Source: a virus
Virus record (IMG/VR): IMGVR_UViG_3300022804_000001
DNA length: 64,000 bases
Strand: one strand, 5' to 3'
In this document: positions 2,068 to 24,500 of the stretch, one piece after another
Position numbering within the stretch: position 1 is the stretch's first letter
How the letters are laid out: each line of letters begins with the position of its first letter
Made by a program: the position numbers and the translations under genes
Notes under the pieces: generated by a model
What the model was told of the DNA's origin: nothing
What the model saw: the letters and a program-made list of their open reading frames with translations, nothing else
Database searches by the model: none

Positions 2068-2081
2068 TATTCAAACCCCTT

Positions 2082-2747
2082 TTAGCGAGACATCTCATGA
2101 AATTCTGCTATTAATGCCCTTGCTTCCGCAAGTGTCAACGAACCATCTACAATCCCTGGAACAATATCGGCTAACGCCCCTGCTGCTTTTCTTTTCTGAC
2201 GCACCAAGATGATAGCCGACATTTTGATCCCCGCAGGAGGTGAGCTTTTATACATAGTATCAGCTTTCAATGTATAATACATCTCGCGTTCTTCAAAGGT
2301 GAGCGGGCGATTGTAGTGAAACTTCTTTCCATTGCTGCCCGAAGTATAAAATGGAGGAATATCGTCAGGATCAATATCCGCTGGCAGTTGTGGTAGTTGT
2401 GTAATATCCACCTCCCCTGCGACAGACAAATCCGGTGTGACAGGTTTAGACTGCGTGGTATCATCAGACACCTCAACAGGCTCAGGCGTTCCCTCCTGCC
2501 ACACATCAGGTGCGTCAATAGGCACTTCATGCCAATGGTCACCATGCAGCACCATCTTGAAGCCGTTTCTCGCGAGTGGCGGTTGTTTAGTTTTCTGCTT
2601 ATTCTGCTCTTCCAACAGTCTATTCGATTCAGCTAACTCTTCTTTGAGTTTCTGAAATTCAGCGCGTTCTTTCATAAACAAGAACACACCGGTAATACCA
2701 AGTAATAGAATGAGGGTAGCGATCCCCCAATACTTCTTATTTCTCAT
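2082..2747 (-). CDS. membrane-anchored protein with histidine-triad (HxxHxH) motif
   Basis: 221-aa ORF with AAGGAG RBS. N-terminal TM (WGIATLILLLGITGVFLF), then a coiled-coil segment. FKMVLHGDHWHEVPI matches the HGDH[YW]H..P histidine-triad signature of Pht-type zinc-binding surface proteins. Confidence 0.7.
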   Translation of the reverse strand: MRNKKYWGIATLILLLGITGVFLFMKERAEFQKLKEELAESNRLLEEQNKQKTKQPPLARNGFKMVLHGDHWHEVPIDAPDVWQEGTPEPVEVSDDTTQSKPVTPDLSVAGEVDITQLPQLPADIDPDDIPPFYTSGSNGKKFHYNRPLTFEEREMYYTLKADTMYKSSPPAGIKMSAIILVRQKRKAAGALADIVPGIVDGSLTLAEARALIAEFHEMSR

Positions 2748-3009
2748 GAGTTTTACTCCTTAAAATAAAAGAGTTATCCCTATACTTGCGTTAAGCAAGC
2801 AGGGTCTGTTTGTATACAATTATTGTAGTAATAGAGAGGACTTTGTAGTCTTGTCTCATATTGTGCTTCCTTAATATAACGAAGCAGGTTAATTATTTAG
2901 ACAGACTACAGAGATTCGAAAGGAAAGAGTATATATTATGCAATCTCTGTAGAGGTCGCTGGTCTCTATTACAAGTGACACAAGTGTCAGTAAGTGTTAT
3001 TATAGACAC

Positions 3010-3133
3010 CAGCGCTGTCAGGTCTGGTCTGGCAGTGCTGCGCATCGACGGTGTTAATTAGTAGTCACACTGTCGGTGCTACGCATCGACGGTGATCCCA
3101 TCACTGTCGGTGCGTTCTTAAAGCACCTCCGAC
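3010..3133 (+). promoter_or_regulatory. multi-hairpin structured RNA element (attenuator-like or ncRNA)
   Basis: Hairpin 3010-3021/3029-3040. Four 12-nt segments follow: S1 3042-3053, S2 3068-3079, S3 3083-3094, S4 3102-3113. S1:S2, S2:S3 and S3:S4 can all pair. Every non-Watson-Crick pair is G-T in the plus sense only. Confidence 0.5.
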
Positions 3134-3336
3134 GTAATCCACGCAACTCGTGAATTTCTAACATCTAATATGTATTGTAGAAAAAGTATTAAAAATAGTC
3201 AATACATTCCACAATTTACAAGGATTATACACTATTTCCATTTTTTACACAAGTTTTTTTGTAAATTTATATGAATTTGTGTTATATTATATAATATTTT
3301 AAGGCAAATATATGACAACAATTAAGGAGACTTATT

Positions 3337-3540
3337 TTGCCCCGTCTAAATACGAAAAAAATTGTTAAAGCATGTCAACGATCTTTTGCAGGTAACTCAG
3401 ACGAGGAAATATCAAAAGAACTGGATGTGCATCCCGCAACCATTAGCCGTTGGCGACAACTCCCTTTATGGAAACAAGTAGAAGAAAGTTTAATTGAGAA
3501 AGCAATTGATCAATATTCCGCAACGGAGGATGTGGAATAG
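3337..3540 (+). CDS. small helix-turn-helix DNA-binding protein
   Basis: 67-aa ORF with TTG start preceded by AAGGAG (3323-3328). SDEEISKELDVHPATISRWRQ is a typical HTH segment. Confidence 0.6.
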   Translation: MPRLNTKKIVKACQRSFAGNSDEEISKELDVHPATISRWRQLPLWKQVEESLIEKAIDQYSATEDVE

Positions 3541-3567
3541 TAAACACAATCAATCATCAAAAGTATT

Positions 3568-4074
3568 ATGTCAAGACGCAAAACACCCAGACTTTATGGT
3601 ATCGGCTGTAAGTTCATATTCCCCGGTGCGGTTATTTTAGATGGTCGTCTTAAACCTGACAGACCCAGAGTTGTCGGGGTTGTCCGGTGGTGTCCTCTCA
3701 ATGCCGGTTATGTTTTATGTCCATTTGTAAAACGTGCTTTTGTTTTTCGGACATCTTTTCCGCAATATTTCAAATCTCCACAGCGTGCGTGGGAGTGGTT
3801 AACACATCACACAACAGACTGGACTTATGGGAAATATCAAACATCGTGGCGACCGCTCACCGAACCTGTTTTACGAAATCGGAAAAGAATTCGATTTTTG
3901 ACAGACATTAGGTTGCGTCGAACTTTAGGTCAATTGCTTTTAGCGGGGATCTGTGCGTTTTGGAAACCAGAAAGTATGCTATTGGGTGTGCTTGTAAAGG
4001 TAGGGACAGTTGGGCTGGTATTGAGTGCTGCTTTAGATACATTTTGTTTATGGACAGATTATTTCAAGAAGTAG
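3568..4074 (+). CDS. hypothetical basic protein with C-terminal hydrophobic segments
   Basis: 168-aa ATG ORF. No obvious SD. Arg/Trp-rich with a C-terminal TM-like stretch (LLLAGICAFW...VGLVLSAAL). Confidence 0.4.
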   Translation: MSRRKTPRLYGIGCKFIFPGAVILDGRLKPDRPRVVGVVRWCPLNAGYVLCPFVKRAFVFRTSFPQYFKSPQRAWEWLTHHTTDWTYGKYQTSWRPLTEPVLRNRKRIRFLTDIRLRRTLGQLLLAGICAFWKPESMLLGVLVKVGTVGLVLSAALDTFCLWTDYFKK

Positions 4075-4242
4075 TATAACAATATGATATTCCATTTTTT
4101 ACAAAAAAATCGTTGGCATAAGAGTGTTAAATTGTTAGGATATTCCACGGATTTAATAGATTATATACAAGTTGGCACTTAAGAAATGAAATATCTCGTA
4201 AAAAATGAGAGTATATTGGAGGAAAGAGAGGAAGATTGCGCC

Positions 4243-4410
4243 CTGGAATGACCCCGAATAAAAAGCCGTTTGTGGACGCTCGCCAAGTGACCCATATGGT
4301 ATATTCAGAGATCAATCAGTCTCAGAAAGTGTAATACACTTTTTACTTACTTACAAGAGAGTAAGACTCAAAATCCCCTTTACTATATAACTGGAGAATG
4401 ACCCCAAGTA
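4243..4410. repeat. direct repeat pair CTGGA(GA)ATGACCCC(G/A)A(A/G)TAAA
   Basis: Copies at 4243-4260 and 4391-4410 share the 10-mer GAATGACCCC plus flanks. They lie in the non-coding region upstream of the Rep-like gene. Confidence 0.5.
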
Positions 4411-4463
4411 AAGATGTTTTTGAATCCAAAAAGGACTTAATGACTTAAGGACTTTTTGTAAAA

Positions 4464-4574
4464 GTTTGTCAAATGTTTAAGGATTTTTAATGAATAAAAA
4501 CCTAAATGTCCCAGTGTAGTAAGTTTGAAACTGATAGTATTTTATCAAATTTTGTTAATGTTTGTCAAATGTTT
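4464..4574. repeat. direct repeat pair GTTTGTCAAATGTTT
   Basis: Exact 15-mer at 4464-4478 and 4560-4574. Both copies are followed by TAATGAATAAAA (about 4489-4500 and 4605-4616). Candidate operator or iteron sites. Confidence 0.55.
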
Positions 4575-4606
4575 TTTGTAAAAAACTTAATTTTAGGAGA
4601 ATTCTA

Positions 4607-5593
4607 ATGAATAAAACTGTAAATAACGGTATAATCGATTCAAATTCATCTTCTCAACTCCCTTTATTCTCCCCAAATTCTGATCATTTAGACGACTCTA
4701 AAATCCAAGAATCGACGATGCAGGTGCCGTGTGGTGCTTTTAGCATATTCGATTTATCGTGTCATCGTTTGAATGAGTTTGATCGTGCTGTTTACTGGAT
4801 GATCAATGAGCATAGCAATTGGGATACCGGTATATCTCACGGTTTACCGTATCGTGTTTTGACAGATTTATTGAATGTGAATCATTCATCGCAAGTGAAG
4901 CGTGCTGTTCGTCATTTGATTGATGCGGGTTTTTTAGAGATTGTGGGTAATCGTCTGAGTGATGGAGCGAATATTTATCGTGTTATTCACCACAAGTGTT
5001 TACCGGATGAAGTTCCATTAGATAAAGATAATCGTCCTTTGAAGTGTGCTGTTCCTCGTGGTAAGGGTTCTGGATCATCGTTATTATCTAAGGGTGAGAT
5101 TAGTTGGCGTGAGTTTGTGCAGTGGATGGTCAATAAAGTTTCATCGGACTGGAGTACGGGTGAAGTTCTGATGACGGTTAATATGGCGAATGATCGTCTT
5201 AGGCTGAGTGGTCAAACGATATGTAATTCATTTAGGAGTTTGGAAGCGTCTGGTTTATTGGAGCGTATTTCAGCCAAGTTTCGTGCGAGTATTTTCCGTA
5301 TTTTCCCTAAGCCGTATCCAAAGCGTAAGGATCGTGCGGAGGATAAGGGAAAAAAGCCTTTGCCGAGGATAGGTGATTGGTATTATAGTTATAATAGGCG
5401 TTGGTGTTTTCATAAGGACAATTTTCATGTATTGAGGAAGGATGAGTTTGGGAAGTGGCGGGATAGTAGTATGCAGGAGTTGTATAAGGTTAATGTTACG
5501 ATCCACTGTGATTTTAATGATTATATGTCAGCCTATGCTTCGGAAGAGTTTTCTGATGCTCTTAGCGACTTGAGATTAGCCTTATTGAATTAA
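4607..5593 (+). CDS. putative replication-initiator-like protein with two winged-helix segments
   Basis: ATG at 4607 follows AGGAGA (4595-4600); the track start at 4562 is TTG. VKRAVRHLIDAGFLEIVGNR and FRSLEASGLLERISAK resemble wHTH recognition regions of Rep/DnaD-type initiators. Repeats lie upstream and an AT-rich region downstream. Confidence 0.55.
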   Translation: MNKTVNNGIIDSNSSSQLPLFSPNSDHLDDSKIQESTMQVPCGAFSIFDLSCHRLNEFDRAVYWMINEHSNWDTGISHGLPYRVLTDLLNVNHSSQVKRAVRHLIDAGFLEIVGNRLSDGANIYRVIHHKCLPDEVPLDKDNRPLKCAVPRGKGSGSSLLSKGEISWREFVQWMVNKVSSDWSTGEVLMTVNMANDRLRLSGQTICNSFRSLEASGLLERISAKFRASIFRIFPKPYPKRKDRAEDKGKKPLPRIGDWYYSYNRRWCFHKDNFHVLRKDEFGKWRDSSMQELYKVNVTIHCDFNDYMSAYASEEFSDALSDLRLALLN

Positions 5594-9173: not shown

Positions 9174-9448
9174 TCCAAACAACGAAAACACTTGACAAAA
9201 TATCCGTTATGTGATACGCTATGATATACTATAATCCAAGTGTTTTACATAGATATACCTAAAGATATAAAAGATATATCAATCGTTGATAAACCTTGAT
9301 TATACTTGACTTTCTGAAGATTAAAAAATGTCTTGGAGAGGCAAGGAACACACAATTAACCAGTAATTGTATAGTTCATTGACAAGTAAATAAAAGCGGT
9401 CGGTTGACTATTCCCAAAGCATCGGGTGACGGTCAAAAGGCTGTATTA

Positions 9449-9458
9449 CCTAACGGAG
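9449..9458 (+). promoter_or_regulatory. CCTAACGGAG translation-initiation motif (class I, copy 1, no GC hairpin)
   Basis: ATTACCTAACGGAGAGGTAACATG precedes the ATG at 9466. Confidence 0.7.
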
Positions 9459-9465
9459 AGGTAAC

Positions 9466-9762
9466 ATGGTATCAATACACGGTCACGAGATCACTGTACT
9501 GAATCACGGAATATCCGATCATGCAATAGGTGTAGACATCAAACGTCACGCAAAAATAGAAATTAACGGAAAATTGGAAATTGGTGACGTGGTATTCACG
9601 GAAACAATAAGGGAATATTACGAAATGAAGTTTCACTTAAATAGTCGGTTAAATAGGTGCATATTGCACGTTGCGGCACGTGATGAATTCACGAATCTAC
9701 GTGTTAGACTTCAGAACATGAAACCCATCACAACCGTCATTGGTTCGGTCATTGATTGGTAA
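9466..9762 (+). CDS. hypothetical protein
   Basis: 98-aa ATG ORF behind the class I motif. Confidence 0.7.
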   Translation: MVSIHGHEITVLNHGISDHAIGVDIKRHAKIEINGKLEIGDVVFTETIREYYEMKFHLNSRLNRCILHVAARDEFTNLRVRLQNMKPITTVIGSVIDW

Positions 9763-9768
9763 CAACAC

Positions 9769-9806
9769 GGGCGCGGTCTAATGATCGCGTCCATTACCTA
9801 ACGGAG
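9769..9806 (+). promoter_or_regulatory. class I element: GC hairpin + CCTAACGGAG (copy 2)
   Basis: GGGCGCGGTC-TAAT-GATCGCGTCC (9769-9792; 10 bp, 2 G-T in the plus sense), then ATTACCTAACGGAG (motif 9797-9806). ATG at 9814. Confidence 0.7.
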
Positions 9807-9813
9807 ATACTCA

Positions 9814-10173
9814 ATGAATGAAGTGACTGCACAGATACAAGCGAAAAATGACGCGCTAAGGCAAGGGCTATTTACACCAGAAGGTGGCATGTGTTCGGTC
9901 ACGCGTGGCGTGCATGATCTACCAGTAGAAGCAAAGGCTCAAGTTTTATTGGCAGTCAAGAATTATGATAACTTCAACGAGGACAATGATCCACACGGAG
10001 AACACGAATTCGGAATCGTTGAACTTGAAGGAATTCCCAAAGTATTCTGGAAGATAGATTATTTTGAAGATGCGAAAATGGATTGCAACCCAGATTCAAA
10101 CTTTGGGGAAAATGAAGAAGATTTTATAAATGCTTATCGCTTGCTTACAATCATGTTAGCAGATGAGTATTAA
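9814..10173 (+). CDS. DUF3768-like protein
   Basis: 119 aa. NDPHGEHEFG...VFWKIDYFED...YRLLTIMLADEY matches my recollection of the DUF3768 signature (NDPxGEHDFG / WKIDYYD / TIMLAxEY), a family common on plasmids and phages. Confidence 0.75.
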   Translation: MNEVTAQIQAKNDALRQGLFTPEGGMCSVTRGVHDLPVEAKAQVLLAVKNYDNFNEDNDPHGEHEFGIVELEGIPKVFWKIDYFEDAKMDCNPDSNFGENEEDFINAYRLLTIMLADEY

Positions 10174-10182
10174 ACAACCAAT

Positions 10183-10222
10183 GGGCGCGTCGTTGGGCGC
10201 GTCCAACTTATACCTAACGGAG
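10183..10222 (+). promoter_or_regulatory. class I element (copy 3)
   Basis: GGGCGCG (10183-10189) pairs with CGCGTCC (10198-10204); the region also reads as the direct repeat GGGCGCGTC x2. CCTAACGGAG at 10213-10222. ATG at 10231. Confidence 0.65.
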
Positions 10223-10230
10223 AAATAACC

Positions 10231-10932
10231 ATGACTTATGACATTCAAGACGAGCGGAACGAACGCGAAAAGAGGGCGACGTGGGGTTTTGTCGTTTGCA
10301 CGGCAGACTTCGGAGACTACCGAACATACGTTGCACGTCCAGTCAAAGAAAAGGGCGAGGCGGACGTAATTATGAACGTAATGCAGAATCGTGATGACCT
10401 CAAACGCGTACGTTATGTGTGTGGCACGGAAACAAAAGAGGGATTAACATACCGTCCACGATTGCGAGAAAATGAACGCGTCTATATTCACAACTTCAAT
10501 TCCTTTTTACCTCAAAAAGAATGTGTGCATGTAGGTGCGCGTGTCTCTTATTATCCAATACGCGGCAATATAGAAGTTTCTAAAGAGTTGAAGCATGGGG
10601 TCACGGAGGTTGTTATCGGTGGAGATAGAGGCGGACGTGCATTGGCACTTGATGAGTGGATAATCTCTGAATTGCTACCGAACAAAGATTTGCATCAACG
10701 TGACGACCAGTGGCGCGCATGGGTAATCGGTGATGATTATATTCATCGTGTTTTGGACTTGCTACTTATTGAGAATCAAGCAAACCAGCGTCACGATGCT
10801 CTGGTAATGATGCGAAACTATCAACGAGAAACGTTTGATTATTTCATCGGTGACGAGATCCTTGATGCAGAGGCTATCGTAGATCTATCCACAAAAGAGG
10901 TGAAAGGCGTTTTATTGACACTTACCTCGTGA
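10231..10932 (+). CDS. hypothetical protein
   Basis: 233-aa ATG ORF behind a class I element. Confidence 0.7.
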   Translation: MTYDIQDERNEREKRATWGFVVCTADFGDYRTYVARPVKEKGEADVIMNVMQNRDDLKRVRYVCGTETKEGLTYRPRLRENERVYIHNFNSFLPQKECVHVGARVSYYPIRGNIEVSKELKHGVTEVVIGGDRGGRALALDEWIISELLPNKDLHQRDDQWRAWVIGDDYIHRVLDLLLIENQANQRHDALVMMRNYQRETFDYFIGDEILDAEAIVDLSTKEVKGVLLTLTS

Positions 10933-10967
10933 ATTCCTTTTATCGTGTTGGATACACGAAAGGAATT
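10932..10967 (+). other. interrupted 14-bp hairpin at gene end
   Basis: AATTCCTTT-TAT-CGTGT-TGGAT-ACACG-AAAGGAATT overlaps the stop codon of 10231-10932. No U-tract, so it is not a canonical terminator. Confidence 0.35.
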
Positions 10968-11075
10968 ACTGATTGGCAACTATGGCGATGATTCGGCATA
11001 CTTGAAAATGGACAGTAGTATGTGCAAGCAGATAACGGCACACTATGCACAATTTATGAAATCCTAATCTAACAC

Positions 11076-11113
11076 GGACGCGATCTGTTGGTCGCGTCCA
11101 CTACCTAATGGAG
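11076..11113 (+). promoter_or_regulatory. class I element (copy 4)
   Basis: GGACGCGATC-TGTT-GGTCGCGTCC (11076-11099; 10 bp, 1 G-T), then CTACCTAATGGAG (variant motif 11104-11113). ATG at 11121. Confidence 0.7.
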
Positions 11114-11120
11114 AAATGAC

Positions 11121-12266
11121 ATGAAAATAACTTTTGAAAAATCGGATCTACTGCATGCACTGAATCTTGTTAACGGTGCTTGCGGTGGGTCGGATACGTT
11201 ATCCATTCTCTCTTGTGTTATGATTTGTGGAGAGGCTGGAGTGGTTGAAATCACGGGTAACGACTTGGAAATAGCGGTAAAAGTAGAGACACCAGCGATC
11301 ATTGAAAAGGACGGAATGATCGCGGTACCTGCCAAGCGTTTATTGGAATTAGTGAAGGAACTGCCAACGGACAAACCGATTGATTTTGAAGCTTACGGGA
11401 ATAAGAACAAGGACGGGACGATAATTATTAATAAGCTAAAAATTACTTGTGGTGTTGATACCTATCACATGGTCGGTTTGAATGCGGATGATTATCCAGA
11501 GCGAGTAGAAGTAGAAGGGAAAACCTTTACGATAGCATGTAGCGAGTTACAAAATGTGCTGCGTCAAACGGAATTTGCAGCGTCTAAAGAAGGCTTTAGA
11601 TACCAACTCAATGCGATTTTCTTTAATCAGCACGAAGCGGTTGCAACGAATATGAACATCTTGGCAAGGGTTGCATGTCCTGTCCAAACACCAAAATTTA
11701 TTATTCCACTTCAAGCTGCAAAGGAACTACAAAAAACTTTGAAGCATTTAGACTCTGATATAGCTGTCACTGTTGGCAATAATCTGATAAGTTTTGTGTC
11801 TAACCATGTTACGCTGACAAGTCGCTTGATAACGGGAGAGTATTTGCTCTATTGGGAGATTATTCCGAAAAAATATTGGCTCACTACACCAATATTGGAG
11901 GAAGAGATAGAACTATTGACACATGAATATAGCGTTACCGTCTCTAAATCCGATTTTACGGAAGCACTCAAACGTGTATCTGTGTTTGCATGTGATAAGA
12001 CGTTCCTTGTCATTTTAGAGATTGAATCGGGTAAAATACATCTCTCGTGTGAGGATGATGAGGGTAGTTCAACCGAGTGGGTTGCGTGTTCGGGTTCGGG
12101 TTCGGTGCGTATTGGTCTTAACGCGCGTGCATTACTTGAAATTTTATTCCGTGTTGATGGAGAGTCGTTGGTGATTGAGTTTGGAGATGCTGAAACAGCA
12201 ATCCTTTTCAAATCATCGGATACGGATGATTTTATTAGTGTAATGGGTCCGATGTCTTTAGAATAA
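11121..12266 (+). CDS. dnaN: DNA polymerase III beta subunit (sliding clamp)
   Basis: 381 aa. MKITFEKSDLLHALNLVNGA...TLSILSCVMI...ITGNDLEIAV...VPAKRLLELVKELP aligns by eye with the DnaN N-terminus. The length is typical. Confidence 0.85.
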   Translation: MKITFEKSDLLHALNLVNGACGGSDTLSILSCVMICGEAGVVEITGNDLEIAVKVETPAIIEKDGMIAVPAKRLLELVKELPTDKPIDFEAYGNKNKDGTIIINKLKITCGVDTYHMVGLNADDYPERVEVEGKTFTIACSELQNVLRQTEFAASKEGFRYQLNAIFFNQHEAVATNMNILARVACPVQTPKFIIPLQAAKELQKTLKHLDSDIAVTVGNNLISFVSNHVTLTSRLITGEYLLYWEIIPKKYWLTTPILEEEIELLTHEYSVTVSKSDFTEALKRVSVFACDKTFLVILEIESGKIHLSCEDDEGSSTEWVACSGSGSVRIGLNARALLEILFRVDGESLVIEFGDAETAILFKSSDTDDFISVMGPMSLE

Positions 12267-12272
12267 CAATAT

Positions 12273-12362
12273 GGCGCGGTTTGAAACCGCGTCTGGGCAG
12301 AAGTAAAGGCTTAACGAAATAATAGGTATCTGTCCTACGGAGCCGCCTAAAACCTAACGGAG
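12273..12362 (+). promoter_or_regulatory. class I element (copy 5, extended spacer)
   Basis: Hairpin GGCGCGG(TT)-loop-(AA)CCGCGTC at 12273-12293. Degenerate CCTACGGAG at 12334-12342. CCTAACGGAG at 12353-12362. ATG at 12369. Confidence 0.6.
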
Positions 12363-12368
12363 AAATTT

Positions 12369-13109
12369 ATGAATACTCAAAACACGTTTCACAAAGGTAT
12401 GTCTACACCGTGGGGAAGTATCAACGAGTATACCAAGATCGCGGAAGGCATCATAAGTGTTTCAACCCCTGGTCATGGAGGTCTCTGGTTATCTGATGAA
12501 CGGATTGCACAACTACCAGAAAGTTATGAACCGTTTACAGGGACAAAGCGATGGGCAGAGGAAGATGAGGACGCAGCATTAGTGTTGCAATATCTTGGTT
12601 TGCTTTCATTGATACCAGAGCCATTAACGTTGGAAGTCACACAAGTGGACATTGACAAAGGGCGAGAAAGCCGTAAAACTGCTTGGTATGATACAAAACA
12701 GGGCGGTCCCATTGTGGAAGCCTACAAACGCGTCACGGGGGACGATTGTGGTGAAATGCTTTGCCATAAGTATTTGTCTCCAAAGCCAGGTGGTTTTAGA
12801 TTAGCTATACTCTGCGATGCTGCGATAGCATTCATGCATGCGTTTGATGCAGGTGAGAACGTTGATACATCAACTTTCACATTAGAGCCATATATTGTTT
12901 ATGAACGTGTGAAATTTACTCTCACCGATAAAGACGGCAAGGAATGGATTGATAAGGTTAGCGGTTTCATGGCAAAGCGTATACTTGAAGGGGACAAAGA
13001 GACGTGGGATTTCTATGAACGCATCTATGTCACCGATAAAATTGCTAAAGTGACTCACGAGGACAAAGTTATCTGGGAACGTGAATCAGAGAGCAAGAAT
13101 TACAGCTAA
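12369..13109 (+). CDS. DUF7007-like protein (TPWG...HGG...W.EED signature)
   Basis: 246 aa. MSTPWGSINEYTKIAEGIISVSTPGHGGLWLS...RWAEEDEDAALV resembles a plasmid/ICE-borne family as I recall it. Needs HMM confirmation. Confidence 0.55.
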   Translation: MNTQNTFHKGMSTPWGSINEYTKIAEGIISVSTPGHGGLWLSDERIAQLPESYEPFTGTKRWAEEDEDAALVLQYLGLLSLIPEPLTLEVTQVDIDKGRESRKTAWYDTKQGGPIVEAYKRVTGDDCGEMLCHKYLSPKPGGFRLAILCDAAIAFMHAFDAGENVDTSTFTLEPYIVYERVKFTLTDKDGKEWIDKVSGFMAKRILEGDKETWDFYERIYVTDKIAKVTHEDKVIWERESESKNYS

Positions 13110-13116
13110 AATAATA

Positions 13117-13150
13117 GGGCGCGGCTATGCCGCGTCCACACCTAACGGAG
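13117..13150 (+). promoter_or_regulatory. class I element (copy 6)
   Basis: GGGCGCGGC-TAT-GCCGCGTCC (13117-13137; 9 bp, 3-nt loop, 1 G-T), then CCTAACGGAG at 13141-13150. ATG at 13159. Confidence 0.7.
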
Positions 13151-13158
13151 ATGTAATA

Positions 13159-13653
13159 ATGAAATTACGCACTTTTGAATGGAACGGAGACTGGGAAAAT
13201 TGTCGTGCTGCTGCGGATTCTGGAAAGTTTGACGCGGGCTTGGCAAAGATGGTGGGTAAAAAAATGTATAAAGCATACCGACTTGAACAAGGCTCGGATG
13301 AACCTATGAAAGTTGGTTGGTCAATGCTAACGTCACATACTTTTGATGTGTTGTGGACAACTCACGAGAGAGTAAAACACTTATCCGAAAAAGAGGCAAA
13401 GGTTTTATTTCTTGCTGCAAGCGATATATTTCAGAAGTTAGAGTTTGGCGGTAGAACTACAGCGGAAAAACACGATGATTTACGTGACAGGATGTCAAGG
13501 CTCTGCGAAATGGCTTATGAAATGAATCTTGTTATAGATAAGCACGTGGATTATGACTGGGACAAATATGAAAGCCGATGGGAACAGGTTGAAGAAATGG
13601 AGGAAGAATATCAAACTCTCTTTTCTGAAACAGTACGGATATACAGCAATTAA
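13159..13653 (+). CDS. hypothetical protein
   Basis: The in-frame ATG at 13159 follows the class I motif. The track start at 13081 lies inside the previous gene. Confidence 0.65.
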   Translation: MKLRTFEWNGDWENCRAAADSGKFDAGLAKMVGKKMYKAYRLEQGSDEPMKVGWSMLTSHTFDVLWTTHERVKHLSEKEAKVLFLAASDIFQKLEFGGRTTAEKHDDLRDRMSRLCEMAYEMNLVIDKHVDYDWDKYESRWEQVEEMEEEYQTLFSETVRIYSN

Positions 13654-13659
13654 CAACAT

Positions 13660-13698
13660 GACGCGTCCATTTGGGCGCGTCTATTACCACCAACGGAG
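13660..13698 (+). promoter_or_regulatory. class I element (copy 7)
   Basis: GACGCGTCC-ATTT-GGGCGCGTC (13660-13681; 9 bp, 1 G-T), then the variant motif CCAACGGAG at 13690-13698. ATG at 13706. Confidence 0.65.
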
Positions 13699-13705
13699 GT
13701 AAATT

Positions 13706-14140
13706 ATGGCTATACCTGATCTTAATAAAGGCAATTTTGTTGTATGTAATGATGGTAGGCGGGGATATGTAACAGAGATTGAAGTTGATCGCTATAACAA
13801 CTCAATATGGGTTTGGGTATCAAATGACGATGGAAACGAATTTGAAATTTCTTTTTGTGCTATAACTCACATCATGCGGAAACGCGTCTTTGTAGCAACT
13901 CTCAACGTATCACTTCGGGCAGGATTGAGTAAGGAAGTTAGAGAGAACTATCGTAAATTTGAGTATCGCTTGTGGTTTGTCGCAGATGATATGGAACATG
14001 CAAAGAAAAAATGGTGGGATATTGCTAAATCACATCGGTTAAAAATATCGTTTGGCTTTATGAATACAGCATGTACAGTATATGACATTGTGACAGGTAG
14101 AAAATGGGATGTTAAACTGAAGGAACATAGAAAATCATAA
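13706..14140 (+). CDS. hypothetical protein
   Basis: 144-aa ATG ORF behind a class I element. Confidence 0.7.
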   Translation: MAIPDLNKGNFVVCNDGRRGYVTEIEVDRYNNSIWVWVSNDDGNEFEISFCAITHIMRKRVFVATLNVSLRAGLSKEVRENYRKFEYRLWFVADDMEHAKKKWWDIAKSHRLKISFGFMNTACTVYDIVTGRKWDVKLKEHRKS

Positions 14141-14185
14141 CGCAACGCTGGTGCGCGAGGCAGGGTTCAATTCCTTGCTTGCGTA
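14140..14185 (+). other. tRNA 3'-half mimic (T-arm + acceptor 3' strand); candidate attP core
   Basis: CAGGG-TTCAATT-CCTTG (14161-14177) carries all the invariant T-loop positions (G53 T54 T55 C56 R57 A58 ... C61), followed by 7 nt (CTTGCGT) and A. ACGCAA at 14140-14145 pairs with TTGCGT at 14079+100 offset, i.e. 14179-14184. There is no D-arm or anticodon arm, so this is not a full tRNA. Confidence 0.5.
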
Positions 14186-14239
14186 TTTTGTATCTGATGG
14201 ACAGATACAAACAGGGCAAGACAATAGTCCTACCCTGTA

Positions 14240-14298
14240 CCTAACGGAGAAATTCCACCTAACGGAGAGTTTCTCCAGTCTCAATTTACCTAACGGAG
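14240..14298 (+). promoter_or_regulatory. three tandem CCTAACGGAG motifs (class I copies 8-10; two are orphans)
   Basis: Motifs at 14240-14249, 14258-14267 and 14289-14298. Only the last is followed by a start codon (14305). The second overlaps the small hairpin GGAGA-GTT-TCTCC. Confidence 0.7.
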
Positions 14299-14562: not shown

Positions 14563-14587
14563 AGAGGCTAACGATAAATCAATGAGG

Positions 14588-14609
14588 CAGGGGCGTGCAA
14601 GCGTCCCTG
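14588..14609 (+). promoter_or_regulatory. class II hairpin (copy 2)
   Basis: CAGGGGCGT-GCAA-GCGTCCCTG (9 bp, 2 G-T, GNRA loop), then ATATTCT and the ATG at 14617. No SD. Confidence 0.6.
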
Positions 14610-14616
14610 ATATTCT

Positions 14617-15132
14617 ATGTATGAATACGAAGAACAAGTAATAGAAATCACGAAAGGCAAGGTTGAAGGCAAAAACTGCGTCTACGAGTTTATACTCGGT
14701 TTTTGTGAAGGACCCGTTTATCCGTATATCACCATAGACTATTGGGTACTTCCCGATGGTGTGTCAACAGACAAATTCGCTGGACGTTCTCCACAAGGGT
14801 TGGTAAGCGTTCTGACCGAAAAGAATTATCCTGTTCCTGCTATATTAGAACTTTGGCAGGAACAAACAAAACGGGTTACAAATTCAATGTTATCTGGTGC
14901 TGAAGATATGACTTTGGACGGCTTGAGACAGCATTATGTCAAACAACTTACGGAGGACGATATTAAAGAGTTTATCCGCCAAGAAGTCAGTGAGATGTTC
15001 CAGGAAACAACCATTACCCTTGCATTACATACATACTGGGGAATCAGAGCAGCCAATGATTGGAACGAAGGTCTTGAACAGATATTATTGCAACGATATG
15101 GAGGAGAGGCAGAGACATGCGAATGTCCCTGA
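14617..15132 (+). CDS. hypothetical protein
   Basis: 171-aa ATG ORF directly behind a class II hairpin. Confidence 0.65.
   Translation: MYEYEEQVIEITKGKVEGKNCVYEFILGFCEGPVYPYITIDYWVLPDGVSTDKFAGRSPQGLVSVLTEKNYPVPAILELWQEQTKRVTNSMLSGAEDMTLDGLRQHYVKQLTEDDIKEFIRQEVSEMFQETTITLALHTYWGIRAANDWNEGLEQILLQRYGGEAETCECP
15110..15131 (+). promoter_or_regulatory. class II hairpin (copy 3)
   Basis: CAGAGACAT-GCGA-ATGTCCCTG (8/9 bp, GNRA loop), then ATACAACA and the ATG at 15140. It is embedded in the 3' end of the previous gene. Confidence 0.55.
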
Positions 15133-18559: not shown

Positions 18560-21500
18560 TTATTCACCTCGTATTTGCTGTATGCGTGGAATCTCGCGCA
18601 CAAACGGGAATCGTAAACCGAATTCAGTAGCAGCAGCCCTTGGTTTACCAGCAAATAACTCACCAGCAATACGTGAAGTAATACCGATCACCGGTGCGCT
18701 AAAGAAGCTGCTAATCATCTGTGATGCACGATACGGGTTTTGGTCAGATATTTGTGATATTTCAATAATAGTTGATATTGCGCCAGCAGCTTGTGATTGT
18801 GCCAGTGCTTCAAGAATGCGATTACGATCTTCATCGCGTTCGCGTCCCCGCAGTGCATTGAACACAGAAGTCATCACAGCAGCAGAACCCATCATGAAGC
18901 CTGCACCGATAGCGAGACGCATAGCAGGCTTAAGATTTCCCGCTTTCGCTTGTTTTGCAGCGTATCGCATCTGCTCCCAAATAAATTGATGCATTTGTGC
19001 GCTCCATGCTTTGTATTTGAAAAAAGTTCGTAGCATCGGATTTTTCTTTGTGAGAAAATTTGGCATAGACAGTGCGTTATATCCTTTAAAAATGCGTGTT
19101 GACACATATCTTGCCGATTTTGCCATCTCATCACCAATCAGATCAACCATCGGATGTGTCGGTGCTGGCGTGTCAGGTGGACGTAACCCACCAAGCATCA
19201 TTGCGCCATCAAGGACACGTCTTTCAGCCTCTTTTACAAGGTCATCCAAAGATGGAGCTTCATTGTTAGTCAAAGCTTCGTTATACTGTTGTACTGCAGC
19301 AGGTGATATGTTTAGTTCCTGTAATCGTGAAATTGTATTTTTGTTTGGGTTCTGAATGTGTGCTTGTATAGCGTCGCGAGCAGTTTCCCAACCGACAGCT
19401 GTTCCCATGAGTCGCGACCATTTCTCCGTTGTTGTGAATCCTATCATAGACATATACCGGTTTTGCAACTCACCTTGTGCGAGGTAATCACGAGCTTTAT
19501 TAAGTGTTGCCCCAAAGCGCGGTAGCATTTGACGAAACTCAGTGTCAGTGCTAAATCGTTGTAAACCTATCATTAAAGGTTTTGAACCGGACATTGCTGC
19601 CAACCACGGTACCTCTGCGATATTCTGTGCTGCGTTGCCGAATCCAAGTGTAAACATTGTTGTCATTGAGTTTAGAAGTTGCCAAAACTTGTTGGATTGA
19701 CTATCAACAGGCTCAAGTTGATCCCAGTGTCCAAGTCCTTGCACAATTTTTCGCAATGTTTGTTCACGGAGTTGTCTCGTTTCAAAAAACGGCACCATGA
19801 TCTTAACAAATGTGGTATCTTTTGCAGCTTTCGTTTCTCCTTTGATAGTCCATTGGGCATCACCTTTTTGTTCAATCAGTCCGATGCGCTGTAGAGATTC
19901 AAGCACCTCCGGTGTCCATCCTTCTGGGTTTTCGCGTTGCATTCTCTCAATGTCAACAGGATGGTCAGGTGGTGGTGGCGGTTTATCTTCCCAATACTGT
20001 GGATCGCGGACGGGGTGTTTCCAGTTTCGCAAAATATGGTAGGCTTGTGTTTCACCTTCAACGAAGCTCGGCAGCTTTTCAAACATTTCGTGCGACAATA
20101 AGGTGTCCGTCAACACTTTCAGGGCATGTTCATCAGCATCAAGCGTTGTCTGTTCAAGCCTTGAGAGATATTTTTGTAGACGTGGATGTTTTCCAGTTGC
20201 CGGGTCATGCTGTCCCCACACACTGATTTCAGCGAACCTACGCCAGAATAAAGCCGTGTGGTCAAGTAGTGTCATCACATCACGATTATAGAGTCGATCA
20301 TGTGTTTCTCGTGCAATTTCAAGACTACCAAATCGACCTAATAAGTCAGATTCTTTCGTTGCGAGTTGTTGCTGTGCCATTGCGTAGCTTGCATTCCAAA
20401 ACGCGCGTGCCCCAGCGATAGCAGCTTGTTTGCTATCATAGGTTTCACCTGTGCGAGTGAACTCATAGATCCGTCCATCATCCGTATCACGAATAATGAA
20501 GCCGGGGACTTCTTCTATGTCTGGGTCACGTTCTGCTTCCAACAATCTGTCTAACACACCTGTTTCCACTTGGTTCATAAGTTCTGTCCAGTGTGATCTT
20601 GGATATACATGCGGCATATAGAGATAAGATGTTTCATCAATTGCTTGTTCAAGGGTAAGCGTTGCGCCATCTGAATCCCGAATAAACATTTTGTAATCAT
20701 CTAACCATCTATGTCCGGGCAAGATCGGTGTCCACGGTTTTGGTTCTTTACCACTTGTACTATAAACAAGCAGCTGTTCACCGAGTGCTTCAACTTTTTC
20801 TCGGAGTTGCATCATATAAATATCATGTGCTTTAAGTATTTTCCGCCAAGTTTCCTTCCAACCTGTAGCGATTTGTGCAATTTCAGCGTCCTCTATAGGT
20901 GTATTTTCCTCCATGAAACGGTACACCTGTTCGCTAATCATCGAGTATACAGCCTCCCGTGCAGCACCTTTTTGCCCTTTCGTTCGTTGCTTGGCGAGAT
21001 CAATTAATTCCTTGCGATGCGATTCAAGAGTATTTAGGTCTCGAGCAGTGCCTTGTTCCTGTAGACGGAGCAGGTGTTCTGCGATTTCTCTGATTTCCGC
21101 GCCAACTGGTCCCATCGTTTCAAGATTGCGGTATCCTGACATATACTCGCGACGTGTGCGTTCAAGGTTCAATTTCATTTTCGGTGTGTATCCATCCAGT
21201 TTTGCTTTCAAAGACGCAGCAGGGTCAAACAAACTTCTTAGTCGACTAAAAAACCCAATTTTATCAGGGTTCACTGTTCCTGGTTCTGTGCCGTGTGGCA
21301 CAAAATAACTACCGGGTGCAACTCTGTTGGCTGCTGTTGTATAGTCGCGTAAAACAGGGTCTTGGACACCTTGTGGCAAATCTGAACCTAACACCTGTTT
21401 CTGTTCTAAAGGTATACCGTCTATCCAAGCAGATGCGAATTCAGGCTTACCGCGAATGGTACTGTGCAGGTTTGCCATGCCATCGGTATTATTACCGCGA

Positions 21501-24500
21501 CCGACAAATATATGCATCTTTGTTGCTTGTGCAGCGTTAAGGTATCCGTCCAATGTGCCCAATATATCGCGACGATTCATATCCATAAAGCCCTGTTTTT
21601 CTACAACAGAACGTATGTTTCCAGCGTCATCTGTCATGATGAAGGTTGTCCAGCCATCAGGGGTTTTTAGAAACGAGCCAATAAAAGGAGCTTCAGGCAA
21701 TCCGTTCTGTAGGTCAAGTTTTTGTTCTTCTAACCACATCTCGTCACCAGTCTTATCAAATTGACTTGTTGCATAAGTGCCTTCATTGATGATAACTTCT
21801 GCAGCGAGTCTGTTACCAAAACGATCTCTCCATTTCTGTGTTGTTACTTTGTCATCTGCGGAGAACTTTGCGATCTTACTGGTATGGTTATGCACCCGGA
21901 TAAAATCATCAGCTCCTGTTTCATCCAAAAGTCGTTCAACTTCGTCCATTGAACCGGGAGTTGTTGTATCTGACTGTCCGAGCGAAAACCATTCAGCCCC
22001 AACAACTATATTAGATTTCCGCAGAAGAATAAGCGTGCTTTCAACAAGTGGGTTACGAATGAATTGTGCTAAGATCGCGCCTTCCGCAGCGGAACGCAAA
22101 TTCCGTCCTCGGAGTTGGAAGTATTTGTTCATCTTTATCTGTCTGTCGGTAACTTGAAGCGGTTTACGTTGTAAGGTAGGTGTCTCTTGAATAATCGTGT
22201 TGATTTTCTGACGATATTCTTTGCGGACATCAGCACGTTCTGTTTTTGTTTTGGGATAAGCGTGCTCCCAATTAGCGTTTGGTGATTTACGTTTGTAGTC
22301 CGAGAATTCATCGTTTCGGTCGCGAGCCAGTTCTTCATAGTATTCCAAATCTTCAATATCTTGTTCTGGATCAAAATCATCAGGCATATCATCAGGATCA
22401 AGCCCCATATCTAACATCGCCTGCTGTTTTATAGCTTCTTCATCTTGGACATCTTCGGATTTTTCTTCTGTTGTTTGTTGTTCATCTCCGAATAAACTTG
22501 GTTGTGTAGTTTCTTGGGTTTGTTTTTTCGGTTTTGTCGTTTCTTCAATAACCTCGTTGAGCATATCCAGTTTGCTGGGACCCATATACTCCTTTGTGCC
22601 TTTAAACAAAGATTTTTGTATAGCGACACTTACACCGCTCGCCTTGATGTTTTCAATGGCTTTAGCAACATAGTTGATAACGACATTTGCGATGGGACCG
22701 GTGTCTTTGATACCATTGAACGTACGCATCAGCACGATAGATTCTGGTGTGAGTGTTGGGTCAGCATCCGGCGACATAGAATCTATATGTGCGGCGGCTT
22801 GTCCGATTTTAAAGTTGTTCGGTTCACCACGTAGGTGTGAAAGATATTGTAGTGCGGCGCCGACATCATCAGAGATAGAGAGTGCTTGTACATTCGGGTG
22901 ATAGAGTTGTAGCAACGCATCAAACTTTGCAAGATGTGGCAGCATCATCATCAAAGCGCGTGTATTTTGTGTTGGGACTAATGTGCCATTCTCCTTTGCT
23001 TCAAACATGAGTTTCCCTCGTTCTGAAGTAAAGGTTTTTGCAAGCACAGCATTTTCAAACAGGTGTCTTGCGTTAGGGGCAAGTTTACGCGTGTTACCGC
23101 GTCGGTATCGTGACCGTTCTGCTTGATCCAGCTCGTCTATAAATTCAAGAAATGCTGTTAGATTTTGATCTGTTGGATCTGCTAACATTTCAGCGATTGT
23201 TTTCCGATTACTACCACCTGTTTCTCCGAAACTAAACGCATCAAAAATATCTGATGTCAATGATTCGGCATCTTGGACAGCTTGATGTTCGGCGGTGCGC
23301 GGTGCAGCGTCAGGCGTGTTAGAAGCTTCACCAAACGCTTTCGGATCGCTGATTTCCCCAATAACTTGCCGGACTAATACAGGTTCAGTAAACTGTTCTA
23401 AAACGGCAGGATCTATGCCAAATTCAGGTAATCTTTCTGTGAGAGCTTGTAGGTAGGCTTCGGCTGTTCCACCAGCACGCAAGTAAATAAGTTTCAATAA
23501 GATCAAGCGATGATTCCCACCGACAGCATCATAGGAATTAAGCAGTGTAGGTGTACCGCGTCCCATCCCTTGTGTTTTTTCTAAAGGCAGGTTAGGATTG
23601 AACTGATTAGCCCGTGCGCGTTCCTGTATTTCCTCGTAACGCCCTTCGGCGCGTCCTTGTATTCCTAAATCCCAGTTATATGCGGGGTTACGTTCTAACG
23701 AAACACGATTATCAGAAAGTTTGTGTGATGCAACGGCTGATCTGTGTTCTATCAGTTTATAGACAACAGGTGTTTCTTCCCACGAACCGTCGGATTGTTG
23801 CCAACGAATAACGTCTTGATCCCCTTCATACTCAGGCAACGTTTCGCGTTCCGTATCTACTTCTGCACGCGCAGCTTCTTCGGGAGTAGGTTCGGCTTCA
23901 GGTGTTGCTGGCGTTTGTGTTTCTACTTCCGTTTCTTCGGACGGTGTGTCTTGTGTTTGATCTGTCCGATTCGTGTATGCCAACAATTCCTCAAGTGTGT
24001 TGAATGTTGGATAAAATGCATTCCATTCTCCGTCACCCCAATCATGTTCGTCAAAAGAATGAACATTTTCAGCTGTTGATAATGCTTGCGCTTCATCTAT
24101 TGTCCGTTTTGGATCATAGGCATAAAATATAACCTTTTCTGGCACTTCTTTTGTTTTACTTTCGTCGACAAGCCCAATCCCTGTAAACGTTGTTCCGTCT
24201 TGCGCGAATTTGACTGTGTGTTTACTTATATGTTCTATTCCACCTATACGTTGGTCGCCTTCAAGTAAGGAATATCCGGTATAATGATTTCCCATACCTT
24301 CTAACTCTACACGGGTACTGTCAATTTGTTCGTCTGTAAGATTACCGAGGTATTCTGGTTTAAAGGGTGTTGATACATAGTCACCTTCTATTTCTTCTCG
24401 CAACGGGGTAATATCTTCATTTTCTGTTGTTCCCGCAGTTTCCGTTTCGCTATCTTCTTCAGGTTCTTCTGTTTGTGTTTGCGTTGTTGCTGTGCTGTCA

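Follow-up and report, generated by a model that had tools for sequence, protein, structure and literature searches.

A repeated start-associated box and an intercistronic hairpin with RNA-type conservation in one gene block of an uncultured phage

What purpose is served by a short sequence that precedes every gene of one block in a phage genome, repeatedly in the company of a GC-rich hairpin? The block in question lies at 9449-14298 of a stretch of 64,000 nucleotides (nt) from the IMG/VR virus record IMGVR_UViG_3300022804_000001, and the whole of this stretch, 64 kilobases (kb), is referred to here as the window. The window is a tailed-phage genome with the portal, tail fibre and virion structural proteins encoded on the minus strand, and the block is a set of co-oriented genes downstream of a non-coding region of about 800 nt. 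The block encodes a DUF2851-like protein, a DUF3768 protein, a protein of 233 amino acids (aa), a sliding clamp of the DnaN type, a DUF7007 protein, and three small proteins. An earlier note on this sequence had described ten copies of a motif, of which the extended form is (T)ACCTAACGGAG(A), and had considered an RNA-level cassette, a site for an RNA-binding factor, or, speculatively, a promoter of the N4 type. For comparison, metagenomes were searched with the DUF7007 protein, which returned 64 homologues of 88-45% identity; identity to the window is 88% in L011, 74% in L013, 71% in L012, 69% in L014, 65% in L147, 63% in L146, 62% in L018, 60% in L019 and 59% in L016. The elements are real, conserved and unexplained, and they belong with the start-associated and intercistronic repeats of phages; no new mechanism is demonstrated.

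The motif was searched for on both strands of the window as CCTAACGGAG with at most one mismatch, and nine matches were recovered, all on the plus strand (9449, 9797, 10213, 11104, 12353, 13141, 14240, 14258 and 14289). Eight of these copies are exact, the copy at 11104 carries one mismatch (CCTAATGGAG), and a tenth, degenerate copy is present at 13690 (CCAACGGAGG), so that the count of ten given previously holds. Dinucleotide-preserving shuffles contained 1.63 +/- 1.18 matches, and 0 of 100 reached nine. No copy was found in the 64 kb outside 9449-14298 and no reverse-complement copy on the minus strand, in agreement with the earlier statement that the motif is confined to one block. GGAG ends 6-8 nt before the ATG of all eight genes of the block (at 9466, 9814, 10231, 11121, 12369, 13159, 13706 and 14305), and the copies at 14240 and 14258 are, as had been noted, orphans with no start codon downstream of either.

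The base preceding GGAG is C or U in 8 of 8 block genes, whereas (A)AGGAG, which matches the anti-Shine-Dalgarno sequence, is the dominant ribosome-binding site (RBS) outside the block (21 calls of AGGAG or AGGAGG vs 8 of GGAG or GGAGG without a preceding A), with late genes using AAGGAG. Because a C or U at this position breaks complementarity to the anti-Shine-Dalgarno sequence, CCTAAC is, judged from complementarity, not an extended Shine-Dalgarno (SD) sequence, and extended pairing of this kind was ruled out as an explanation. The earlier remark that CCTAAC exceeds the needs of an SD is thus borne out, and the block genes would carry a deliberately minimal SD of four bases together with a conserved 5' box.

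Six GC-rich hairpins stand between the genes, and all six were confirmed by folding, with stems of 9-10 base pairs (bp) and loops of 3-4 nt. A common outer stem, G-G-(G/A)-C-G-C-G / C-G-C-G-U-C-C, is present in all six; its third pair is G.U and once A-U (the copy at 11076), whereas the inner pairs and loops vary and the spacing between the two half-sites ranges from 7 to 10 nt. Five short intergenic segments, with hairpins 1, 2, 3, 5 and 6, have folding z-scores of -2.4 to -4.9 and minimum free energies of -18.6 to -21 kcal/mol, and a longer segment with hairpin 4 (12267-12368) has z = -1.45. The wobble pairs of the six hairpins are G.T on the plus strand only. All six stems start 6-9 nt 3' of a stop codon, that at 11076 only when a putative read-through extension ending at 11067 is counted. 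A U-tract is missing behind all six (the next 10 nt contain 1-3 T), so that none has the GC-rich hairpin with an immediate U-tract that marks an intrinsic terminator; a terminator scan of the plus strand called only a related hairpin at 14588, and a canonical terminator exists on the minus strand at 444-469. The shared stem sequence, the strand of the wobbles and the distinction from canonical terminators had all been reported from the sequence before, and each was recovered here.

The linker is about 50 nt long and consists, in order, of the stop codon, a CA-rich spacer of 6-9 nt, the GC hairpin, an A, 3-4 nt (once 8), ACCUAAC, GGAG, an A-rich spacer of 6-8 nt, and AUG. The features of the block are as follows.

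9396-9444, plus strand: hairpin in the 5' leader of the operon, followed directly by the first motif copy; the fold of 9380-9465 has -23.9 kcal/mol and z = -3.09, and the leader sequence is conserved in L011.
9449-9458, plus strand: motif copy 1 (CCTAACGGAG), RBS of a 98-aa gene (ATG 9466).
9769-9792, plus strand: hairpin 1, GGGCGCGGUC-UAAU-GAUCGCGUCC, 10 bp, segment minimum free energy -19.3 kcal/mol; begins 6 nt past the stop at 9760-9762.
9797-9806, plus strand: motif copy 2, RBS of the DUF3768 gene (ATG 9814); homology to L011 stops at 9807.
10182-10205, plus strand: hairpin 2, 10 bp, -18.9 kcal/mol.
10213-10222, plus strand: motif copy 3, RBS of the 233-aa gene (ATG 10231).
11076-11099, plus strand: hairpin 3, GGACGCGAUC-UGUU-GGUCGCGUCC, 10 bp, -21.0 kcal/mol, third pair A-U; 8 nt past the stop of the putative extension (11065-11067).
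11104-11113, plus strand: motif copy 4 (CCTAATGGAG), RBS of the DnaN-like sliding clamp (ATG 11121).
12273-12363, plus strand: long ('type 2') linker in front of the DUF7007 gene (ATG 12369), made up of hairpin 4 (12273-12293, 9 bp), GGGCAGAAGUAAAGGCUU, a further stem-loop and, at 12353-12362, motif copy 5.
13117-13137, plus strand: hairpin 5, 9 bp, -18.6 kcal/mol.
13141-13150, plus strand: motif copy 6, RBS of a 164-aa gene (ATG 13159); homology to L011 stops at 13149.
13660-13681, plus strand: hairpin 6, GACGCGUCC-AUUU-GGGCGCGUC, 9 bp, -20.8 kcal/mol.
13690-13699, plus strand: degenerate motif copy (CCAACGGAGG), RBS of a 144-aa gene (ATG 13706).
14211-14238, plus strand: hairpin of 12 bp immediately next to the first orphan motif; the hairpin that relatives have at this place differs in sequence.
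14240-14298, plus strand: array of three motif copies, of which 14240 and 14258 are orphans and 14289 is the RBS of an 85-aa gene (ATG 14305); homology to L011 resumes at 14239.

The hairpins were compared across eight genomes with the core helix pattern G[GA]C[GA][CT]G ... C[GA][CT]G[CT]C, pairing being required. This returned 55 copies on the sense strand vs 13 antisense readings, most of which are the same palindromes read backwards. Of the 55 copies, 33 have G.U as the third stem pair (the second core pair), 15 have G-C and 7 have A-U; core pairs four and five change jointly to A-U and U-A, and L018 contains five copies of a compensated variant, GGGCGUG/CACGUCC. An alignment of 42 copies has changes on both sides at 5 of 9 pairs, and 0 of 500 shuffles match the observed covariation score; sliding the partners by 1-3 columns lowers pairing from 96% to 29-55%, a percentage that is partly circular, given that pairing was a criterion in selecting the copies. 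From the window to L011, hairpin 1 changes from G.U to A-U and from U-A to U.G with pairing preserved. An unbiased hairpin scan, in which G.U and A.C counted equally, gave 128 G.U vs 35 A.C pairs for the sense strand of the early regions and 5 vs 9 for a late-region control of the window; among the loops recovered, C(UUCG)G occurs 14 times and G(GCGA)C six times. The compensatory changes, the UUCG and GNRA tetraloops and the sense-strand excess of G.U indicate that the hairpin family acts as RNA, with selection exerted on the transcript and not on double-stranded DNA or the template strand. The RNA-level role favoured in the earlier note, whether as a processing or stabilising cassette or as the site of an RNA-binding factor, fits these observations.

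The hairpin family is widespread, and the CCTAAC tail is separable from it and has a narrower phylogenetic spread. A search of the related contigs, which the earlier note had proposed, found CCTAA[CT]GGAG on the plus strand only, with nine copies in the window, nine in L011, five in L013 and ten in L014, and none in L012, L016, L018 or L019. The tail is therefore limited to one clade of four genomes, within which the motif is identical, with clamp proteins that are only 49-69% identical and proteins overall that have diverged to 49-88% identity. Motif copies precede non-homologous genes, and the array at 14240-14298 is conserved in L011, L013 and L014 with diverged spacers and both orphans retained. 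By this comparison the motif itself is under selection. The gene of 85 aa downstream of the array was considered as an autoregulated RNA-binding protein and rejected, as the array in L014 precedes a non-homologous gene.

Outside this clade, the same hairpin is followed by other tails: ACCUACAAAGGAG in L018, ACCUAUAAAGGAA in L019, ACCUACGGAG and GUCCUAUUUUGGAG in L016, U-rich tails in L012, and in L147 UUUAACCUUUUGUAAGGAG, which recurs in five to six linkers of nearly the same sequence. These distributions indicate that linkers evolve in concert within genomes, so that each genome would possess its own homogenised 'standard linker'. The L147 linkers, at 1160-5170 of that contig, are about 50 nt long and read CUAAC(CUAAC)A-GGGCGUGGC-UUUU-GUUGCGUCC-UUUAACCUUUUGUAAGGAG, with CUAAC 5' of the stem and a U-rich tail. 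CTAAC was rejected as a universal flank of the hairpin, as it lies 5' of the stem in L147 (7 of 9 hairpins), 3' of it in the window clade, and rarely beside it elsewhere.

Besides the separability of hairpin and tail, two further findings go beyond the earlier note. One is that the pair at 12273 and 12353, that is hairpin 4 and motif copy 5, forms the two ends of an element of about 90 nt related to Rfam RF03113 (Poribacteria-1), a candidate small RNA (sRNA) without assigned function. The match at 12273-12363 reaches 38.9 bits (E = 3.9e-4 in 6.4 kb), below the gathering score of 74.2, so that Rfam would not count the element as a family member, and its alignment spans model positions 1-107 of 107 with the second stem partly mismatched; orthologous matches in L011, L013 and L014 are likewise sub-threshold, at 34-41 bits. 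Ten copies of the element from relatives exhibit compensatory pairs in the first hairpin. The element and the model, whose conserved segment is GUAAAGGC, appear from the alignment to have in common a 5' GC hairpin, GGGCAGAAGUAAAGGCUU, another stem-loop and a tail that ends in GGAGA; they differ in the tail itself, which is CCUAACGGAGA here and cUAAGGAGA in the model, and only one of the six hairpin-motif pairs has the long form. Homology of 12273-12363 to RF03113 is plausible, and the intercistronic position of the element suggests that it is cis-acting and not a free sRNA. The orphan Rfam motif would thereby be placed in intercistronic positions of phage-like elements.

The other finding is that motif copies lie at mosaic breakpoints. 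The nucleotide sequences of the window and L011 cease to be homologous at 9807 and once more at 13149, and they are homologous again from 14239, exactly at the first orphan copy. Each of these breakpoints falls at a motif copy, with different genes in the segments between, although any conserved island looks like a breakpoint wherever the crossover occurred. At the position of 9807, L011 contains an additional 58-aa gene flanked by two motif copies, and an orphan hairpin with a motif is present in L011 at a replacement junction.

What is established is the sequence of the elements and where they lie, their restriction to one strand, the RNA-type conservation of their structure, their distribution over the clades and the breakpoints; every molecular activity in the account that follows is inferred, and we assign this account a probability of roughly 0.5. 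The linkers would be post-transcriptional intercistronic cassettes, each combining a decay-barrier or processing hairpin with a class-specific initiation box, and would serve as recombination joints as well. The first eight genes would be transcribed early as one polycistronic mRNA, with a standardised sense-RNA linker between successive cistrons. As the hairpin stands 6-9 nt behind the stop codon and has no U-tract, its most likely role would be that of a stable, non-terminating barrier to 3'-to-5' decay and/or a processing mark, which would set stability cistron by cistron. GGAG is the SD core, as its position shows, and the C before it would deliberately hold this core to four bases, while ACCUAAC would be a box specific to this class of genes, through which a trans-acting factor could control the early cistrons together at translation initiation or by cleavage, with a control logic analogous to that of T4 RegB, RegA or CsrA. 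Secondarily, since the linkers are near-identical, they would likely act as joints for the exchange of gene cassettes among related phages.

Several observations weigh against this account. No candidate for the trans-acting factor was found in the window: a tblastn and signature search for a CsrA homologue gave nothing credible, so that a phage-encoded CsrA was rejected, and an antisense RNA partner encoded by the phage was rejected because the 64 kb contain no reverse-complement copy of the motif. A decay barrier needs no conserved stem sequence. Many of the hairpin copies are related by duplication, in addition to the circularity in the pairing percentage, and the identity of the copies could stem largely from intragenomic homogenisation, since each genome has its own tail (L147, L018, L012). 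Some family hairpins in relatives carry U-tracts and resemble true terminators, whereas the window clade has no such copy. Finally, the predicted unpaired probability of the RBS is 0.49-0.64 with the native hairpin and 0.47-0.62 with the hairpin shuffled, which is not a significant difference and led to rejection of the hairpin as an insulator that holds the RBS open.

Homogenisation is also the starting point of an unlikely alternative, in which the linkers are chiefly recombination joints for the exchange, insertion and deletion of early genes, in the manner of the promoter-early stem-loop (PeSL) cassettes, and their uniformity is no expression signal. The L011 breakpoints at motif copies, the 58-aa gene between two copies, the orphan hairpin and motif at the replacement junction, the homogenised linkers of L147 (five to six copies), L012 and L018, and the PeSL precedent (PMC4122927) all speak for it. 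An identity of 10-13 nt is, however, very short for homologous exchange, breakpoints appear at any conserved island, and the strict 6-8 nt to the ATG, the sense-strand G.U bias and the stability of the tail at 49-88% protein identity are left unexplained; recombination at the linkers is compatible with the post-transcriptional cassette and does not exclude it. It is distinctly unlikely that the hairpins are leaky or conditional terminators (attenuators), serving either graded expression of the operon or phage antitermination of a nut-like kind at stem and box. Stems rich in GC and capped by UUCG or GNRA loops are a usual mark of terminators, and U-rich tails follow several family hairpins in L012, L016, L018 and L147 (for example GCCGCGUUUCUUUUUU and GUCCUUUAACCUUUU); moreover, antitermination sites have a boxB/boxA arrangement of a stem and a linear box, which the conserved stem and box resemble. 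Yet no copy with a U-tract is present in the window or its clade, although canonical terminators are used elsewhere in the phage, six loading sites for an antiterminator in 5 kb would be unusual, and no N- or Q-like protein was identified. A DNA operator, bound by a repressor that blocks elongation as at the stoperators of cluster A mycobacteriophages, is a very unlikely reading. It would suit an asymmetric motif with all copies in one orientation to transcription, the repeated occurrence between genes, with orphans and a tandem array among the copies, and the tyrosine recombinase and helix-turn-helix proteins that the phage encodes, and DNA binding was favoured by Pope et al. for the ESAS repeats (PMC3203893). 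It makes the fixed spacing to the start codon and the embedded SD core unnecessary, the coupled hairpin is conserved in structure only as sense RNA, the promoter region itself has no motif, and the variable half-site spacing of 7-10 nt argues against a dimeric site in double-stranded DNA.

Still less probable is a reading of the hairpins as minihelices that resemble a tRNA acceptor (G1-C, G2-C, G3.U and an unpaired A) and that, together with a tRNA-like element at 14139-14190, mark cleavage by RNase P or RNase Z. The G.U third pair is conserved and most copies have an A after the stem, and a covarying T-loop element without an anticodon arm occupies the same intercistronic positions, with several copies per genome in relatives; the unpaired A is not followed by CCA, 22 of the 55 copies have G-C or A-U in place of G.U, a hairpin of 9-10 bp falls short of the 12-bp acceptor/T minihelix, and the idea draws on resemblance only. 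The notion that each linker is a promoter, either an N4-like hairpin or a site for a phage RNA polymerase or sigma factor with a start near ACCUAAC or GGAG, is scarcely credible. Conserved sequence does lie directly 5' of each gene, T3-type promoters end in CTAAAGGGAGA, to which CTAAC-GGAGA bears a loose likeness, the AAC...CGTC flanks are reminiscent of extracytoplasmic function (ECF) promoters, and a giant virion-type protein is encoded nearby. The AAC-to-CGTC spacing is, however, 19-24 nt vs 16-17 nt in ECF promoters, and an ECF-type promoter was rejected on these grounds; sigma-70-like sites are not enriched (56 vs 46.7 +/- 7.8 expected) and no listed site overlaps the linker downstream of the hairpin, so that a sigma-70 promoter in the linkers was likewise rejected; and a transcript initiated at the motif would have its SD at the very 5' terminus. 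No open reading frame (ORF) of the size of a T7-like polymerase is present in the 64 kb. The N4 comparison fails in hairpin geometry and wobble strand. N4 early promoters have a stem of 5-7 bp and a loop of 3 nt, act through the template strand and are used by a virion RNA polymerase, whereas the stems here have 9-10 bp, the loops 3-4 nt, and the wobbles lie on the non-template strand, appearing as C.A mismatches on the template strand.

The giant protein that had prompted the N4 idea has 2690 aa (18560-26632, minus strand) and carries a DprA winged-helix domain, a weak RadC-like JAB match and matches to PHROGs of unknown function, and no RNA polymerase signature was found in it with Pfam or PHROGs. 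At the same position in L014 (16182-20864), a giant protein of 3798 aa possesses AAA_34 and Helicase_C_4 domains, and from these domains the protein looks like a polyvalent injected protein and not a virion RNA polymerase. An N4-like promoter was rejected on stem length, wobble strand and the absence of a polymerase domain from this protein; of the interpretation in the earlier note, the RNA-level role, the distinction from terminators and the box beyond the SD stand, and the N4-type promoter does not.

Among known systems, the closest in anatomy is that of the SAS/ESAS repeats of cluster K mycobacteriophages, which were described in 2011 (PMC3203893) and were functionally untested still in 2025 (PMC12699233). 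In both systems a short asymmetric repeat with an SD core lies a few bases 5' of the ATG, in one orientation and in the non-structural part of the genome, and precedes unrelated genes; the SAS spacing is 3-7 bp at non-structural genes, and here the copies are all on the plus strand, 6-8 nt from the ATG and only at 9449-14298. About half of the copies follow an imperfect inverted repeat with a variable spacer, six of ten in the present case, and the consensus of the inverted repeat differs among subgroups. The 13-bp SAS consensus GGGATAGGAGCCC, however, is unrelated to ACCTAACGGAG, the two sharing only the GGAG core and differing by more than two mismatches, and the conserved extension here lies only 5' of the SD. 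The ESAS inverted repeats did not support RNA pairing, and Pope et al. proposed DNA binding (PMC3203893), whereas the inverted repeats here pair as RNA, judging from their G.U bias, compensatory changes and UUCG loops. The host lineage is also different, and the copies here lie in one 5-kb operon.

The PeSL cassettes of T4-like phages, which combine a sigma-70 early promoter with a terminator (PMC2839356, PMC4122927), are similar in being small composite stem-loop repeats between early genes that flank variable genes and stand at the boundaries of indels and replacements between related genomes, as the elements do here. They differ in that the present linkers have no detectable promoter, and hence not the PeSL combination of stem-loop and sigma-70 site, that the hairpins have no U-tracts, and that the conserved box overlaps the RBS. 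The stoperators of cluster A mycobacteriophages fit in orientation and multiplicity and do not fit the overlap with the RBS or the coupling to an RNA-type hairpin. Repeated intercistronic stem-loops that confer segmental stability or serve as processing sites are also known from enterobacteria, as REP/BIME hairpins, and from the early operon of T7, as RNase III sites. Stems of the REP type have a conserved sequence and follow stop codons closely, but REP elements are chromosomal and mobilised by RAYT transposases, and the T7 RNase III sites are irregular helices of about 20 bp, longer than the 9-10 bp stems here. To our knowledge, neither is coupled to a conserved RBS box. In its logic, the block may be compared to the T4 RegB and RegA systems, in which a class of early cistrons shares an initiation region of the GGAG type that is the target of a phage factor switching them off. 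T4 RegB cuts GGAG in the initiation regions of early genes within a long recognition context (PMC3014915), but this context lies 3' of GGAG (GGAGRAYARAA), whereas the conserved part here lies 5'; the 3' side of GGAG is A-rich (for example GGAGAAAUAAC), and the Y and A positions of RegB do not fit. Integron attC sites were also considered and rejected: ACCTAAC fits the R'' sequence RYYYAAC, but no complementary GTTAGGT (R' GTTRRRY) is found across any hairpin. An attC site further needs an integrase of the IntI type, whereas the recombinase of this phage, encoded farther downstream of the block, is a tyrosine recombinase of 246 aa with only the catalytic Phage_integrase domain.

SAS/ESAS repeats at the ribosome-binding sites of early genes have been known since 2011, with no function shown so far, and a second, unrelated example makes the question more tractable by offering an RNA hairpin, a separable clade-specific tail and a base before GGAG selected against pairing with rRNA, which together point to recognition by a factor and not to stronger ribosome binding. 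A much bolder reading, which we regard as a long shot, is that a family of Poribacteria-associated phage-like contigs of about 52-124 kb uses modular RNA 'punctuation' in its first-expressed operon. The modules would be the G.U hairpin, the clade-specific tails such as ACCUAAC, the anticodon-less tRNA-like elements and the Poribacteria-1-type elements. They would be read by a dedicated RNA-binding or processing machinery, either of the phage or consisting of host tRNA-processing enzymes, to cut, stabilise and time early cistrons, and would double as joints for exchanging cassettes of anti-defence genes. Were this so, the Rfam Poribacteria-1 'sRNA' would be one such module and not a bacterial sRNA. 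The result further suggests how early, probably anti-defence, genes may be shuffled as cassettes.

Searches of phage, IMG/VR and GTDB collections yielded no usable relatives. A blastn search of INPHARED phages with the block gave one irrelevant match of 58 nt only, a scan of IMG/VR with the hairpin-plus-motif pattern gave four single chance matches, and scans of IMG/VR and GTDB with the clamp protein gave matches of 23% identity or none. A metagenome scan with CGCGTCC-N3-8-CCTAAYGGAG returned at least 120 loci with single matches, and among the matches listed no comparable genome had multiple copies. The tRNA-like sequence of the block was found on contigs of 45-68 kb binned into metagenome-assembled genomes (MAGs) of Candidatus Poribacteria, and these contigs, together with the Poribacteria-1 Rfam match, point to Poribacteria, which are sponge symbionts, as the probable host, a link made through binning only. 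The phage is thus probably an uncultured marine phage associated with Poribacteria, and the result gives a clue to the host of an uncultured family of phages of sponge symbionts. L016 and L021 are the same contig of about 123 kb, which contains the hairpin family and the tRNA-like element and was placed in a MAG labelled Nitrosopumilus sp.; the other binned relatives are all labelled Poribacteria, and the Nitrosopumilus label is probably a binning error.

In independent assemblies of the same phage, the block is 100% identical, with no variation in an exact look-up of the clamp. Three assemblies (L008, L009 and L010) stop at about 8.4-9.3 kb, in the non-coding region just 5' of the block. Because three independent assemblies end there, the block may adjoin the physical end of the genome, or a repeat at that place; if a terminus does lie upstream of it, the block would enter the cell ahead of all other DNA of the phage.

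The 233-aa ORF ends at an in-frame TGA (10930-10932), and the next 45 codons of the same frame (41 from a GTG at 10945) encode a conserved peptide (...LTLTS*IPFIVLDTRK...; region 10930-11067, plus strand). This peptide is conserved in L011, L012 and L019, and L016 has Gly and no stop at the position of the TGA. Directly after the UGA begins a hairpin, AAUUCCUUU...AAAGGAAUU, that is conserved and has CGUGU/ACACG as its inner stem. These features suggest programmed read-through or recoding at 10930, as far as can be judged from the sequence, and with such an extension hairpin 3 would sit 8 nt from the real stop.

The tRNA-like element at 14139-14190 (plus strand) is about 50 nt long and is followed by hairpins at 14186-14210 and 14211-14238. 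Its parts are an acceptor-like stem (ACGCAA/UUGCGU), a T-arm (GGUUCAAUUCC) and a D-like hairpin of 3 bp with GG in its loop; an anticodon arm is lacking, and ARAGORN and Rfam gave no match. Thirteen copies are present at ten loci, up to three per contig, some on contigs binned as Candidatus Poribacteria, and the element is intercistronic, as the hairpins are. In the alignment of its copies 98.9% of cells are paired, with changes on both sides at four pairs. As it is multi-copy on a contig and covarying, a reading as attP is unlikely.

A seventh hairpin with a related stem (core GGGCG/CGUCC) and without a motif is located at 14588-14609, within a second type of linker at 14584-14619 (plus strand), which reads GAGG, hairpin CAGGGGCG-UGCAAG-CGUCCCUG, AUAUUCU and AUG at 14617. 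Folding of this linker would bring the SD-like GAGG within 7 nt of the start as a split RBS, an arrangement that occurs in T4 genes 38 and 25. The second linker type is also present in L012, L013, L016, L018, L019, L022 and L023, with a loop that is mostly GCGA or GUGA.

The canonical terminator on the minus strand at 444-469 reads AGGCAGGUAAC-UUCG-GUUAUCUGCCU followed by UUUUCUUUUCCC and lies behind a 524-aa minus-strand gene; it is conserved in L018 (1942-1971), and ordinary U-tract terminators are thus used in this phage family. At 3010-3115 (plus strand) there are two long hairpins (12 bp at 3010-3040 and 16 bp at 3081-3115) that carry the repeated word GCATCGACGGTG. They lie about 1.5 kb upstream of a gene with a weak match to replication initiators (4607-5593), and the region may be an origin or iteron region.

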